A DNA stretch of 64,000 bases from an uncultured Rhizobium sp. Its GTDB lineage: Bacteria > Pseudomonadota > Alphaproteobacteria > Rickettsiales > UBA1997. The notes under the pieces are model-generated. The model searched no databases. It saw only the letters and a list, made by a program, of their open reading frames with translations, and was not told where the DNA came from. Below are positions 3,887 through 60,601 of the stretch, one piece after another. Numbering within the stretch: position 1 is the first letter of the stretch; each line of letters opens with the position of its first letter. The translations under genes and the position numbers were made by a program. Location of the stretch: contig CAYUHG010000006.1 of NCBI GenBank assembly GCA_964444545.1, positions 6,581 through 70,580 on the forward strand, given 5' to 3'.

Positions 3887-4780
3887 TTATCTACCTGTTT
3901 TACCAATTGACGTTAGAGATAATGGCTCAAAGTTTCTTGCTGCGTAATCACTAGAACTTTGAGAGCCATTGGAACTATCCACCAGAATATCGCTTTTGCA
4001 AAAGCTTAGATTTTCTGCAGATGTTAAATCCGTAAGAAATTTTGTAGAATCAGATATTGATAATCTGCGCTGAGATCTTGGTGTGTTGAGATCGTAATCG
4101 TCTCGTTGCAAACAATCCTTAATTTGTCCCCATTTCTCAAATGTTAATCCCGCCTCGCCGTTAATATCGCGCTTTTTGGGATTTTCTCTTGCATCAAGAG
4201 TTTTCAGCAAACCTCTTATAAATGTTACTTTGCTGCTGCTTATTATTTCAGGATCGTCATCAAGATAGAGAATTTTCTGATTTTCGGGATTTTGAGCAAT
4301 CTCATCGAGTGCGATTTCCTTTTGCGGAAAGCCTGAAGTATTTCCATGAATCTTTGTAAAATATTCTAGCAAATTATGTTGTTCTAAAATGGTTTCTATC
4401 ACTTCCGGTCTTTGATTTGAAGCGATGTAGAACTTTATGCCATTTTCGCGGCCTTTTCGTAGGATTCGTTCCAAAATCATTTCATCAGCAAGCCAATTTG
4501 ATAAGGTTCCAATTTCACTTTTAGTAGCCCTTGCCGTATGAGATTTTGTTAGTGTGCCATCAAAATCAAAAATTATTGTATCAAATTCTCGGTCTCTGAG
4601 ATTGGCAATTATTTCGTCAGATAAAATGTCGTAATTATCTGACGTAATTGAACTTGTTGATCTGGCCTGACTAGAATATCTTCTGTTTCTGGGAGATGAT
4701 CCGGGAGATGTATTTCTTTCAGGAGTTCGAACAATTTCTTGGAAAGATTTACTTGCTGACTCTTCTGGTGACGATTTCAT
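3887..4780 (-). CDS. HAD-superfamily phosphatase domain flanked by Ser/Arg-rich low-complexity ends
   Basis: Motif I FDFDGT, motif II ASN, motif III K, motif IV YLDDD. Termini are rich in S/R/P. Confidence 0.7.
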   Translation of the reverse strand: MKSSPEESASKSFQEIVRTPERNTSPGSSPRNRRYSSQARSTSSITSDNYDILSDEIIANLRDREFDTIIFDFDGTLTKSHTARATKSEIGTLSNWLADEMILERILRKGRENGIKFYIASNQRPEVIETILEQHNLLEYFTKIHGNTSGFPQKEIALDEIAQNPENQKILYLDDDPEIISSSKVTFIRGLLKTLDARENPKKRDINGEAGLTFEKWGQIKDCLQRDDYDLNTPRSQRRLSISDSTKFLTDLTSAENLSFCKSDILVDSSNGSQSSSDYAARNFEPLSLTSIGKTGR

Positions 4781-4979
4781 GAGTGATTTAATATAAAGAT
4801 AGGAGTAACCCAGAGTTGCAAATCACACAAGTTCTGAATTCTGGAATACTAACTGTTGATGAAGTTAACAAACGATCCCAGCTTGATATTTTTGAGTAAT
4901 AATAAAGGAAGGACTTTTTTAAACCTGAGGTTGTAAAATCTAAAAAAAATATCCCTAAAATTTTACGTTTGAAATTTTT

Positions 4980-6146
4980 ATGACCAATCGCACGAAGCAG
5001 ATTATTACTTTCTTGTCGGTATTCTCTCTGATTTTGGCGATGCTACATTTTTATCTTTATCAGCGCAGTATTTATTATTTGCAGCTGGAGGATCTCGGTC
5101 GGAATATTTTGTTGTGTGTTTTTAGCTCATTAATGATGATTACTTTGTTGGCGATGCCGCTAAGTCGGATTTTGCCTCGCTTCTTTGCCTCAATAATTTC
5201 TTGGATTGTTTATCCGTGGATGGGTTTGGGTTTGATGTTGATTACAGGATTTTTTCTCGCGGATTTGCTGTGGTTAGCCCTTAATTTTATTTCGCTAAAC
5301 AGTTCGATCTTTCTATCCCCGCAGTTACAAAAAAACTTTGGTCTGGCTGTTTTTATTGTTGCCGGAAGCTGTGGAATTTATGCTTTGTGGAACGGGTTGA
5401 ATTTCATCAAAACTAAATTGGTAAAAATTAGTTTAAGAAAATTATCTCCAGAACTTGATGGTTTAAAAATCGCACAAATTACCGATATTCACATTGGCCC
5501 AATTCTTGACGGAAAATGGTTACAACGTGCGGTTGATCGAGTTAATGTTCTTGACGCCGATATTATTGCAATTACTGGCGATTTAGTTGATGGATCGGTT
5601 GCGGAATTAGGTGCACATGTTGAGCCTTTGAAAAATTTAAAAGCCAAACACGGTGTTTTTTTTGTTACTGGAAATCACGAATATTATTCCGGTGTTCAAG
5701 AATGGTGTGATTATCTGCAAAGTCTTAATATCAAGGTCCTGCGCAATAATTACGTTTCGCTAAAAATTGGTAAAAGTGCAATTGACCTTGCCGGAGTTGA
5801 TGATTGGAGTAGTCGCCATTCCGCCAATGGTTATAATTTACCGCAAGCTTTGGTGGGACGCGATCAAGCCAATCCAGTGATTTTATTGTCGCACCAGCCA
5901 ATAACGATGCACGATTCTGCCAAAAATAGTGTCGATCTACAACTTTCTGGCCACACCCACGCAGGCCAAATCTGGCCTTTCAATTATTTTGTTCATCTAC
6001 AACAACCAGTTTCCAAAGGTTTGTTCCAATATCCCAATTCAGATTTACAAGTTTACGTAAATTCTGGAACCGGCTTTTGGGGACCACCCATGCGCCTAGG
6101 AACTTTTGCCGAGATTACTTGTATCACCTTGCATAGCCTGCAATAA
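4980..6146 (+). CDS. Membrane-anchored metallophosphoesterase (YkuE/YaeI-like)
   Basis: N-terminal TM helices; DIH, GDLVD, GNHE, LSHQP and GHTHAGQ calcineurin-like motifs. Confidence 0.92.
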   Translation: MTNRTKQIITFLSVFSLILAMLHFYLYQRSIYYLQLEDLGRNILLCVFSSLMMITLLAMPLSRILPRFFASIISWIVYPWMGLGLMLITGFFLADLLWLALNFISLNSSIFLSPQLQKNFGLAVFIVAGSCGIYALWNGLNFIKTKLVKISLRKLSPELDGLKIAQITDIHIGPILDGKWLQRAVDRVNVLDADIIAITGDLVDGSVAELGAHVEPLKNLKAKHGVFFVTGNHEYYSGVQEWCDYLQSLNIKVLRNNYVSLKIGKSAIDLAGVDDWSSRHSANGYNLPQALVGRDQANPVILLSHQPITMHDSAKNSVDLQLSGHTHAGQIWPFNYFVHLQQPVSKGLFQYPNSDLQVYVNSGTGFWGPPMRLGTFAEITCITLHSLQ

Positions 6147-58363: not shown

Positions 58364-58429
58364 CTCGAAAGAAAGTGAGAGTTGAAGTGAGACCGCGAAC
58401 TTAAAACCCTAACTAAAACTAGGCAATAT

Positions 58430-60601
58430 TTAGTTCATAACAATTTCATCAGCCCTGGTTTCTCCGATTAATTTTTGAGATCCTGGTCTTGCTGAAGTAT
58501 CAGTAGATGGAATTGGTTGTGATGTAGATTTACTTTGTTGTCTGGCAAATTTGTATAAGAAAATTTCTTTGCCGTTCTCAATTGCGCCAGAAGTGCCGCC
58601 AGAAATTGCCATGGTAACTTCAGGTAAAACTACCTGATTATTTTCATCAATTGGTTGGCGAATTATTGATCTGCCACCGTGAGATATAACATTACGACGA
58701 TAGTCACCAGTACAGAAATTTCCATTGCGATGAAATTTCATCATTTCTCTGGCTTCTTGCTCGCCGAATCTGGTTTTAAGATCTTCTAAATTTGGTCTCC
58801 AAGACTCTTCAACGAAAGAAAAATATCGCGATAGTGATTGCGCTAGAGGAGAAACATTTTTGGTAAAATCAATACTATATCCACGCGCGCTCGCAACTGC
58901 ATCGTAAACTCTTTCGTTTTGATCAGCAGTGCGAATTACAACTTTTCCTTCGCTGTTATATTGTGGTTCGCGATCGCGATCAATTGTTACAAATTCTATA
59001 ACTCCAGCCTCATGCATTGCTAAAATTTCTTTAGCGGTTTTTATTGGCATACCGTTGTGGAAAGCGTCGCGAATGCGGATTAAAAACTGCAAATGAAATG
59101 CTGATTCTTCTGGTGTAAGAAGTGGAGTAATAAATATCTCGTCATTTTGTCCGTAGATTGATTTCCACATTAAATAACCATCTTTTGTGTCCCCAGATTC
59201 AGCCATTGCAAGATTTTCACGCAGCTGTTCAATTTGTGGTTTGTTTAAAAATTTGGCGCGAAATTCTTCCATAATTGGTTGATAATTTGCGCCATCAAGT
59301 GGCAGTTCAAATAGATTTTGAATTTGACGAAATTGCTCAAGAGAACTGCCTTTTACATCACTTAAAATTGCATCGGAATTTTCGGGAAGTTCTCTGCCGG
59401 AAATAGTTTTAATAATCACTTTTGTGAAATCGCGTGCTTGGTTTGCTTGGTTTTCCAGACCTTCAATAAGATAGCCATTTTCAAGAGCTCGAGCGTTTAG
59501 TAACATCCATTGCCATAAACGAATTTTCCCCTCTTGCTCACCCGCTAATTCTTGTAAATCTTTTTGTCTAATTTCAGTTCCTTGTGGAAAAGTTCTGCTG
59601 AATTTTTCTTGTCTTTGCCAACCATCTTTTCCTTTAACGGCTTGCATCAAATTTTTGGTGCGCGCCAGCAAATCGACTTTAATTGAATAGCCCTCAAAAT
59701 CGCTCGGGGTAAATTTCCATTTAGTACCACCATCTTCAGAAATTTCTTCTTCAAACAAACCTTCATTAAAAATTGTTTTAATGGCATCAATTGCAGTAAG
59801 GCTTTGACCTTGAATCGCGATAGTAATTTCTTTATTTTCGTCGCCTTTTTCTTTTCTTTGGGAGATTTCTTCGTGCAGAATACGAATTAGATCAGATTTA
59901 AATTCTGAAATTGGCCAAATTTCCGGAACAAAACGTGGTTTAGGATCTTTGTCGCGCACTCTCCATCTACCAGTTGCTAAGACAACTTCATTAAAATTTT
60001 CTTCAGCATAATTTTTACTGTGATCAACAAATCCGAGTTTGATTTCACCTTCTTGAATTTTGTCAAGAGCAGTAACTTCAGTTTGACGATGTTCATGAAC
60101 TTCAATACCGTGAGCTTTAATTTTTTGCAGAGCTTCTTCAAAAATAAAAATATTGCGCATACCAAGCAGAATGCGTGGATGATATTCTTCGGCGACTCTG
60201 AAATCTAAGTAGCGTTTTTCAATGCTTTGCCAAATTTTGGCATAATGTTGGCGTAAATTTTCTTCTTCTTCAGGGCTTTTTACTCTGGTTAATTTTTCTG
60301 TGAGACGTTCTTCGTAAATTGAGCGAAATTTTCCTTTTAGTTCCAATTCATTTTCTCTGAACCATTCAATTGATTCGCCAAATGAGTCAACATTGCTTGA
60401 TGATTTAACATTTAAAAGATGTTCAGGATCTGTGGTTTCTAAGTCGTAAGGTAATCCCGCACCAAGTCCATATTTTCCGTAAGAATCAAAAATATTGATT
60501 GATTCAATCGCAACTGTTTCACCTTTCTCAAGACTTATTGCCATTTGGGTTATGAAACCAAGTGCTACAGGACCAGTGCCAACTAAAGCGATTTTTGTCA
60601 T
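58430..60601 (-). CDS. Large FAD/NAD(P)-binding protein (NAD_binding_9-like) with insertions
   Basis: IALVGTGPVA, GAGLPY...HLLNV, YHPRILLG, VVLATG, AVASARG. Confidence 0.7.
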   Translation of the reverse strand: MTKIALVGTGPVALGFITQMAISLEKGETVAIESINIFDSYGKYGLGAGLPYDLETTDPEHLLNVKSSSNVDSFGESIEWFRENELELKGKFRSIYEERLTEKLTRVKSPEEEENLRQHYAKIWQSIEKRYLDFRVAEEYHPRILLGMRNIFIFEEALQKIKAHGIEVHEHRQTEVTALDKIQEGEIKLGFVDHSKNYAEENFNEVVLATGRWRVRDKDPKPRFVPEIWPISEFKSDLIRILHEEISQRKEKGDENKEITIAIQGQSLTAIDAIKTIFNEGLFEEEISEDGGTKWKFTPSDFEGYSIKVDLLARTKNLMQAVKGKDGWQRQEKFSRTFPQGTEIRQKDLQELAGEQEGKIRLWQWMLLNARALENGYLIEGLENQANQARDFTKVIIKTISGRELPENSDAILSDVKGSSLEQFRQIQNLFELPLDGANYQPIMEEFRAKFLNKPQIEQLRENLAMAESGDTKDGYLMWKSIYGQNDEIFITPLLTPEESAFHLQFLIRIRDAFHNGMPIKTAKEILAMHEAGVIEFVTIDRDREPQYNSEGKVVIRTADQNERVYDAVASARGYSIDFTKNVSPLAQSLSRYFSFVEESWRPNLEDLKTRFGEQEAREMMKFHRNGNFCTGDYRRNVISHGGRSIIRQPIDENNQVVLPEVTMAISGGTSGAIENGKEIFLYKFARQQSKSTSQPIPSTDTSARPGSQKLIGETRADEIVMN

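Follow-up and report, generated by a model that had tools for sequence, protein, structure and literature searches.

What are genes of no evident housekeeping function doing inside the tightly packed housekeeping operons of an uncultured member of the Rickettsiales, and are their products delivered to other cells? The question is raised by a 64,000-nt stretch of DNA, hereafter the window, from a genome of the lineage UBA1997 (GenBank assembly GCA_964444545.1, deposited as an uncultured Rhizobium sp.), which corresponds to G000:C6:6581-70580, that is, to these positions of contig 6 of the source genome, G000. The genome comprises 1.65 Mb in 58 contigs, is 98 % complete, has a G+C content (GC) of ~38 % and is 92 % coding. 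An earlier note on the window had described single orphan genes docked into housekeeping operons, six of them with C-terminal tails rich in S/T/P/R/G, and had read them as the dispersed effector repertoire of a host-interacting bacterium, spread by a mechanism that inserts genes into operons; the coordinates and gaps that it quoted all match the map of open reading frames (ORFs), and its tail strings are present in the translations. The six candidates are a kinase-like protein (KIN), a protein with the glutamine synthetase fold (GS), a 1621-aa orphan, a HAD-family protein (HAD), a 164-aa protein (ORF164) and an FAD-binding protein (FAD), and a seventh gene, LamG, is treated apart. These genes are real insertions into a conserved backbone, which is the strongest result of this report, and at least some of the encoded proteins are probably substrates of an rvh-like type IV secretion system (T4SS).

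Evidence for insertion comes from gene order: two stretches of 20 kb served as blastn queries on 30 congeners, and the syntenic regions of G017, G014, G045, G002, G013, G044 and G010 were annotated. KIN (14130..16709) begins with a GTG start codon 6 nt past the stop of ilvB (16716..18488; 60 % identity to the distant genome G036) and ends 15 nt ahead of ilvN (13611..14114), and so splits the genes for the two subunits of acetolactate synthase. In 12 congeners ilvB and ilvN are adjacent, with a gap of 11-141 nt; the slot is filled with KIN in G017, G002, G008 and G045, holds KIN in pieces in G016, and carries unrelated cargo in both G044 (a 539-aa ORF, G044:C24:2228-3847) and G013 (ORFs of 167 and 89 aa; G013:C20, locus 8667-9457). 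GS (9600..11831) stands between glpX (12302..13276) and secB (9128..9634), which are adjacent in 10 congeners; it fills the slot in G002, G005, G013 and G014, adjoins glpX in G004, and is at another locus in G018 and G022. FAD (58430..60601) starts 2 nt past rlpA (60604..61287) and is followed by a gene for a metZ-like sulfhydrylase (57167..58363). This rlpA|metZ slot contains FAD in G017 (67 % identity), is empty in G014 and G002, and in G045 is occupied by an unrelated 468-aa membrane-like ORF and a 95-aa ORF (G045:C15, concatenated 36811-38832); the FAD copy of G004 overlaps the genes on either side of it by 4-10 nt, and in G000 these two genes adjoin each other. LamG (43200..44075), which starts 26 nt past pabC (44102..44893) and overlaps pabB (41938..43218) by 19 nt, occupies a slot that is filled in G017, G002 and G010 and empty in seven congeners (G014, G007, G019, G013, G045, G042 and G021). 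All of the window genes located so far are on the minus strand, as is ORF164 (56163..56657), which lies downstream of yajQ, 5 nt past its end; the yajQ|lptF slot has an ORF of 158-191 aa in G017 (27 % identity), G002 (34 %) and G014 (no blastp match). The 1621-aa orphan (18671..23536, plus strand) fills the space between the divergent genes ilvB and fabZ, a slot without cargo in each of the four congeners inspected (G017, G014, G045 and G002), and HAD (3887..4780, minus strand) has a YceI-like gene and a metallophosphoesterase gene as its neighbours.

Since the same slots are empty, filled with the same family or filled with unrelated cargo, and since cargo also appears at other loci, the genes have been gained, lost and replaced repeatedly. 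Set against a tree built from 15 concatenated core proteins, ((G014,G045),(G017,(G000,G002))), the presence patterns of four cargo genes are not each explicable by one gain. Here and below, 'core' denotes a tblastn match in G036, the whole genome being used, and the gene set is that of the longest-ORF calls made for this report (1472 ORFs in G000). This arrangement recalls the Dot/Icm repertoires of Legionella and Coxiella and their 'plasticity slots', in that singleton, fast-evolving, eukaryote-like candidates are distributed over a conserved backbone and the same positions are differently occupied from species to species. The slots of G000 differ, however, in being located inside tightly coupled housekeeping operons, such as between the acetolactate synthase subunit genes, rather than in intergenic islands, and G000 has neither E-blocks nor a Dot/Icm system.

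Rather than being syntenic, conserved cytoplasmic proteins of relatives, as the effector reading might have foundered on, the candidates were each detected in only 2-7 of 24 congeners, and 16 genomes from other families yielded none of the six. KIN occurs in five of the congeners, GS in seven, FAD in five, the 1621-aa protein in four (partial homologues at other loci), HAD in two (at other loci) and ORF164 in two. All six are single-copy in G000, and LamG has 14 paralogues. Identity between candidates and their homologues within the genus is 23-68 % overall; between congeners it is 32-38 % for KIN, 24-29 % for GS and 27-34 % for ORF164, and 65-67 % for FAD and LamG. Flanking core genes from the same genome pairs are 52-97 % identical, i.e. 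the cargo diverges faster than the backbone. By base composition, the six are not flagged as recent transfers, with native-like GC values at the 27th-84th percentile.

Of the encoded proteins, KIN (859 aa) has an atypical kinase fold. Searches with the single sequence and with the family profile gave no match in Pfam, NCBIfam or PDB sequences. At the level of the fold, the label 'kinase-like' given to it in the earlier note is nonetheless borne out by an AlphaFold2 (AF2) model, with a predicted local distance difference test score (pLDDT) of 75.8 and a predicted template modelling score (pTM) of 0.79, for which all 50 Foldseek matches listed are kinases or kinase-like, with CtkA of Helicobacter pylori (probability 1.00, E 0.008), CotH and PI4K II alpha/beta at the top. 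Its language-model neighbours comprise a type III secretion effector cluster, PI3_PI4_kinase, HipA_2 and LepB_N/Sca4. When the family was compared by hhalign with a LepB_N/Risk2-like alignment, made from PF18640 matches in Rickettsiales genomes, the probability was 69 % (E 4.4e-5), with the catalytic loop and the DFG motif aligned. The segments NWDFAN..N264 and VDFGNSG are invariant in 33 homologues (D256, N259, N264 and D286-F-G), and the catalytic residues are matched in the alignment by D169, N174 and D194 of LepB_N. KIN shares a protein-kinase-like fold with the N-terminal PI4-kinase domain of LepB and Risk2 (PF18640) and with CtkA and Risk1, CtkA and PI4K II being its top structural matches, and its catalytic loop reads I-x-N-W-D-x-x-N-x-N-x-N-I-G against I-G-D-F-D-x-H-x-G-N-I-G in LepB_N/Risk2, with a V/I-D-F-G motif that also aligns. 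Unlike LepB_N and CtkA, it has a helical C-terminal region of ~520 aa without known relatives, and it is limited to one genus of metagenome-assembled genomes (MAGs). Risk1 and Risk2, which are PI3/4-kinase-like, are rvh effectors in Rickettsia (PMC11077975).

GS (743 aa) consists of a helical N-terminal domain and a C-terminal domain with the glutamine synthetase fold, and here too the fold named beforehand stands, on the strength of the AF2 model (pLDDT 88.2, pTM 0.87) and of Foldseek, in which all 50 PDB matches listed are glutamine synthetases or enzymes of that family (probability 1.00, E 2.6e-4 to 4.4e-3; 15 with E<=0.001). Neither the single sequence nor the family profile nor divergent members gave a match in Pfam, NCBIfam or PDB, and an exhaustive profile search recovered only 65 representative clusters among 1.84 billion, all of the same architecture, with no bridge to described families. 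Among 26 homologues, G294, E296, E298, R477, E480, D515 and Q519/N521 are invariant, and E639 and R641 are conserved in >=90 %. The likeness to carboxylate-amine ligases (GS type I, GCS2/YbdK, phage COOH-NH2 ligases and the actin-crosslinking toxin domain, ACD) lies in a high-confidence fold over residues ~286-700, in an invariant G-x-E-x-E strand with the metal-binding E-x-E, and in conserved Arg/Glu positions. GS differs from these enzymes in having no relation to any family at the level of hidden Markov models, in its 285-aa helical N-terminal domain and in TM-scores of only 0.33-0.41. By sequence it belongs to none of the described families (Gln-synt_C, GCS2, ACD, COOH-NH2 ligase); Atlas leads reach only 0.75-0.80, and the likeness to ACD is a language-model lead only (0.78). 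In one of the two congeners with GS at another locus, G022, a TAG stop breaks the gene (G022:C1:26455-31191) into ORFs of 586 and 116 aa, and this may be a decaying copy.

The remaining proteins are more varied. No family was found for the 1621-aa protein or ORF164 in Pfam, NCBIfam or PDB sequence searches; the Atlas leads of the former are weak only, among them XVIPCD (X-Tfe) at 0.63-0.66, and blastp found no internal repeat in it, although a weak duplication is seen by eye. ORF164, a small fast-evolving protein, has a transmembrane-like segment at residues 18-38, and the statement that the six lack a signal peptide accordingly holds for five of them and fails for this one. HAD (297 aa) has a HAD-family phosphatase core (PF00702, PF13419) with Ser-rich N- and C-terminal extensions, and its homologues in two congeners also have Ser-rich tails. 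FAD (723 aa) has an N-terminal FAD/NAD(P)-binding domain (PF13454) and belongs to a family with only 10 clusters in a database of 5.8 billion clusters. FAD, HAD and the membrane protein ORF164 are possibly accessory proteins of an ordinary kind. LamG (291 aa) combines a prepilin leader with a LamG domain (PF13385; PF07963 is weak, with E 0.0035, under the family cut-off), shares its leader with 14 paralogues in a 15-member pilin-type family, and is encoded in a genome that also has PilB-, PilC- and PilT-like genes (type IV pilus/type II secretion-like); it is a pilin-type surface protein and not a T4SS candidate.

No secretion genes had been seen in the window, and the earlier note had suggested a search for rvh or virB-virD4 loci elsewhere in the genome. 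An rvh-like T4SS is indeed encoded there, with VirD4 (E 7e-141), two VirB4, VirB10 and a VirB11-like ATPase, their genes scattered over several contigs, as well as four giant VirB6-like ORFs of 1006-2396 aa. Additionally, there are 18 ankyrin-repeat ORFs (e.g. C1:31114-34346, C2:56963-60930 and C48:29-1183), all of them non-core, without a G036 homologue. For the type VI secretion system, no sheath gene (TssC) was found in the genome, and a search for the ATP/ADP translocase as a marker of lifestyle had no match anywhere, its control included. The system and effector set used for comparison are those of the Rickettsiales vir homolog (rvh) T4SS (RalF, Risk1, Risk2/RT0527, RARP-2 and Pat1/2; PMC11077975, PMC2653234). 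Shared with them are the dispersed VirD4, duplicated VirB4, four large VirB6, VirB10 and VirB11, and candidates that are themselves dispersed, lineage-specific and patchy, that include a PI3/4-kinase-like protein and many ankyrin proteins, and that have unstructured C-termini. Differences are that no window protein is a detectable sequence homologue of any named effector, that the tails of G000 are without the typical positive charge, and that G000 represents an uncultured aquatic lineage.

The tails themselves give a mixed picture. In five of the six candidates, the S/T/P/R/G fraction over the last 30 aa is 0.47-0.53, at the 96th-98th percentile of the 1472 ORFs (mean 0.25, standard deviation 0.10), and in GS it is only 0.33, at the 80th percentile, so that of six tails said to be rich in these residues five belong to the top 2-4 % and that of GS does not. 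Among soluble non-pilin proteins, a fraction >=0.45 is reached by 21 of 235 non-core and 6 of 579 core proteins (Fisher p 1e-7). The difference between core and non-core resides mainly at the C-terminus (0.236 vs 0.278), the corresponding values being 0.250 vs 0.246 for the N-terminus and 0.251 vs 0.263 for the body. Ankyrin ORFs, an independent effector-like class, have the same bias (mean 0.356 vs 0.251 for the genome, p 3.5e-5), and tails rich in S/T/P recur in the 33 KIN homologues (mean 0.40) without conservation of the sequence itself. In the two proteins modelled, the tail is hydrophilic and unstructured, with disorder (pLDDT <50) in the last 21 aa of KIN (residues 839-859) and the last 16 aa of GS (residues 728-743). 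Among the published S4TE criteria for alphaproteobacterial T4SS effectors are, for the final 25 aa, a net charge >=2 (feature 10) and >=3 H/R/K (feature 9) (PMC3814349). Five of the six candidates have the latter, but so, in a proteome rich in Lys, do 84 % of the core set; and, taken together, features of the S4TE type (charge, basicity, hydropathy and E-block) separate neither the candidates nor the non-core proteins from the core. Polar, acid-poor, disordered C-termini of this kind are compatible with recognition by VirD4 and do not amount to a defined signal.

On balance, and with some reserve, the combined explanation favoured here is that the genes belong to a genus-restricted, fast-evolving, flexible pool in a compact rvh-bearing backbone, that recombination has spread them between species, and that some of their products reach other cells through the rvh system. 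As plausible effector candidates, predicted from sequence and modelled structure, the CtkA/PI4K/LepB_N-like kinase, the GS-fold ligase and the 1621-aa protein come first. A number of points weigh against this explanation. In the earlier note, the S/T/P/R/G alphabet was a post hoc choice; the six tails share no C-terminal motif and have no E-blocks; and their net charges over the last 25 aa are 0, 0, 0, +1, 0 and -2, so that none reaches >=2, a value attained by 31 % of the core set and 36 % of the non-core set. Tails as rich in S/T/P/R/G are present in 12 core proteins, including, by sequence, SSB, ribosomal protein L2 and RNA helicases, and the tail of the FAD orthologue in G017 is not rich in these residues (0.27). 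Moreover, non-core proteins are S/T/Q/N-rich over their whole length, so part of the tail bias reflects general composition. For KIN, Foldseek gave weak E-values (>=0.008) and hhalign a probability of just 69 %, and PF18640 and PF00454 match none of the 33 members at E<=1 and nothing in the genome. FAD and HAD have ordinary enzyme domains. Finally, core status depends on one distant genome, gene boundaries depend on longest-ORF calls, and the recombination through conserved flanks invoked below is an inferred route.

Much of this would also be expected if the genes were ordinary lineage-specific accessory genes, for cytoplasmic enzymes, membrane proteins or regulators, that have nothing to do with secretion, their tails being the generic disordered ends of young proteins and their place in operons a product of compaction. 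Such an account agrees with the full-length S/T/Q/N richness of non-core proteins, with tails that have neither motif nor positive charge, with the common enzyme domains of FAD and HAD, with the equally high scores of core proteins known for disordered tails, and with the small number of G036-conserved pairs, 5 of 110 in the whole genome, that are interrupted (two of the five being in the window). It is likewise in keeping with the spacing of genes. Tight docking had been presented as a special feature of the candidates, yet it does not exceed chance: gaps between same-strand neighbours have a genome-wide median of 8 nt, with 46 % at <=6 nt and 63 % at <=26 nt, and the median is 11 nt for core-to-non-core and 8 nt for core-to-core pairs, which is no difference, so that short gaps are simply the default of a compact genome. 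Against an account by accessory genes alone stand the core/non-core difference, which is much stronger at the C-terminus than at the N-terminus or in the body; the same tail bias in ankyrin proteins; the tail composition kept in 33 KIN homologues; the resemblance of KIN to kinase classes used as T4SS effectors; and the rvh T4SS with its 18 ankyrin ORFs, taken to show delivery of protein to other cells. It is regarded as possible, though less likely. Of the 'dispersed effector repertoire', then, what survives is a set of accessory, fast-evolving and partly effector-like genes in a genome with an rvh T4SS; neither a common signal nor a mechanism of insertion is established.

As to how the genes arrived, comparison of filled and empty sites revealed no direct or inverted repeats, target-site duplications, att-like sites, integrase, transposase or recombinase at the junctions examined, which measure 2-26 nt, or up to 69 nt. 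The mechanism envisaged in the earlier note has consequently left no trace, tight spacing being the genome default. It would have cassettes moved by a dedicated, unrecognized site-specific system aimed at inter-cistronic operon junctions, and this would suit the unrelated cargo found in the same slots according to species (KIN, 539 aa or 167 + 89 aa at ilvB|ilvN; FAD or 468 + 95 aa at rlpA|metZ), the same cargo family in different operons (FAD in G004; GS in G018 and G022) and the great precision of junctions that are 2-26 nt long or overlapping. Precise junctions, however, are the default of all gene pairs here, the spacers leave no room for attC-like sites, and the cargo orthologues are only 24-67 % identical, which makes the insertion events old and rare; a dedicated system is very unlikely. 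One family of repeats was considered as a mark of cargo borders and rejected. It is a palindromic element of ~85 nt, similar to the Rickettsia palindromic elements, with the family sequence CTGTCATCCTGAGCG.AGCGAAGGATCT ... AGATCCTTCGCT.CGCTCAGGATGACAG; it occurs at 56 loci in the genome, about ten of them inside ORFs, and in the window at 12149-12237, at 26170-26255 (inside comEC, in frame) and at 41794-41878. Its copies are not enriched beside non-core genes, and core genes flank 19 of the 46 intergenic copies on both sides, a number close to expectation. In a separate observation, the empty ilvB-ilvN site of G014 (G014:C82:2860-2928) is a 69-nt spacer with a short inverted repeat, AAAACTC...GAGTTTT, that filled sites do not have and that could be an attenuator- or terminator-like hairpin.

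In the combined explanation of a flexible gene pool with some rvh-delivered members, rare illegitimate insertions would place cargo between cistrons, homologous recombination through the conserved flanks would spread the inserts between species, and deletion bias would trim the junctions, a sequence of events for which dedicated insertion machinery would not be needed. As almost every gene abuts its neighbour, an insert that survived would be co-transcribed, and translationally coupled, with housekeeping genes. At least some members are probably transferred by the rvh system, either to a eukaryotic partner or to a competitor. A more far-reaching version appears doubtful, namely that fixed junctions (ilvB|ilvN, glpX|secB, pabC|pabB, rlpA|metZ and yajQ|lptF) serve as exchange slots for promoterless effector genes that hitch-hike on the transcription of essential genes, and that the disordered, acid-poor, S/T/P-rich tails shared with ankyrin proteins constitute a lineage-specific rvh signal without the canonical positive charge.

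Antibacterial toxins delivered by rvh systems have been proposed for basal extracellular Rickettsiales, and it is least likely of all that the candidates are such toxins, aimed at competing bacteria rather than at a host, for although the retention of ilv, pab and met biosynthesis genes and of photolyases argues against strict intracellularity and the 1621-aa protein has its weak XVIPCD (X-Tfe) leads, these leads are far under the reliability range of the tool, KIN, GS and FAD have no evident small immunity-like genes as neighbours, and PI3/4-kinase-like folds, together with the 18 ankyrin proteins, speak for targets in eukaryotes.

Should rvh substrates be among these proteins, the short list of Rickettsiales effectors would gain new enzyme classes, one of CtkA/PI4K/LepB_N-like kinases and one of GS-fold ligases without sequence relatives, contributed by an environmental lineage close to the point at which host association begins. 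If they are not secreted, the finding reduces to accessory genes of an ordinary kind in a streamlined genome. The polymorphism of the slots is a natural experiment, in that orthologous operons with and without an insert show how very compact genomes acquire and express new genes, and genes that interrupt otherwise universal adjacent pairs offer a practical route to effector candidates in MAGs.

Three other regions of the window deserve mention. At 50526-53489 there are lipoprotein-like genes (LPP20-like and unassigned) that are non-core relative to G036, yet have 58-84 % identity in every congener examined; the non-core class thus includes stable genus-level genes. A cluster of ~11 kb (28680-39685) encodes a DPRP/cryptochrome-like protein, an amine-oxidase-like flavoprotein, a photolyase, a Cfa-type methylase, a DUF1365-like protein, an SDR and an MFS protein, and varies among congeners, with the photolyase alone kept in G017 and the cluster missing at that position in G014 and G045. 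Lastly, a 285-aa orphan (6431-7288, minus strand) located beside tRNA-Ser (7641-7732) has no match in Pfam or NCBIfam and the lowest GC of the region (0.303, 1st percentile), with a GC at third codon positions of 0.217, and is probably a recent single-gene acquisition at the tRNA.

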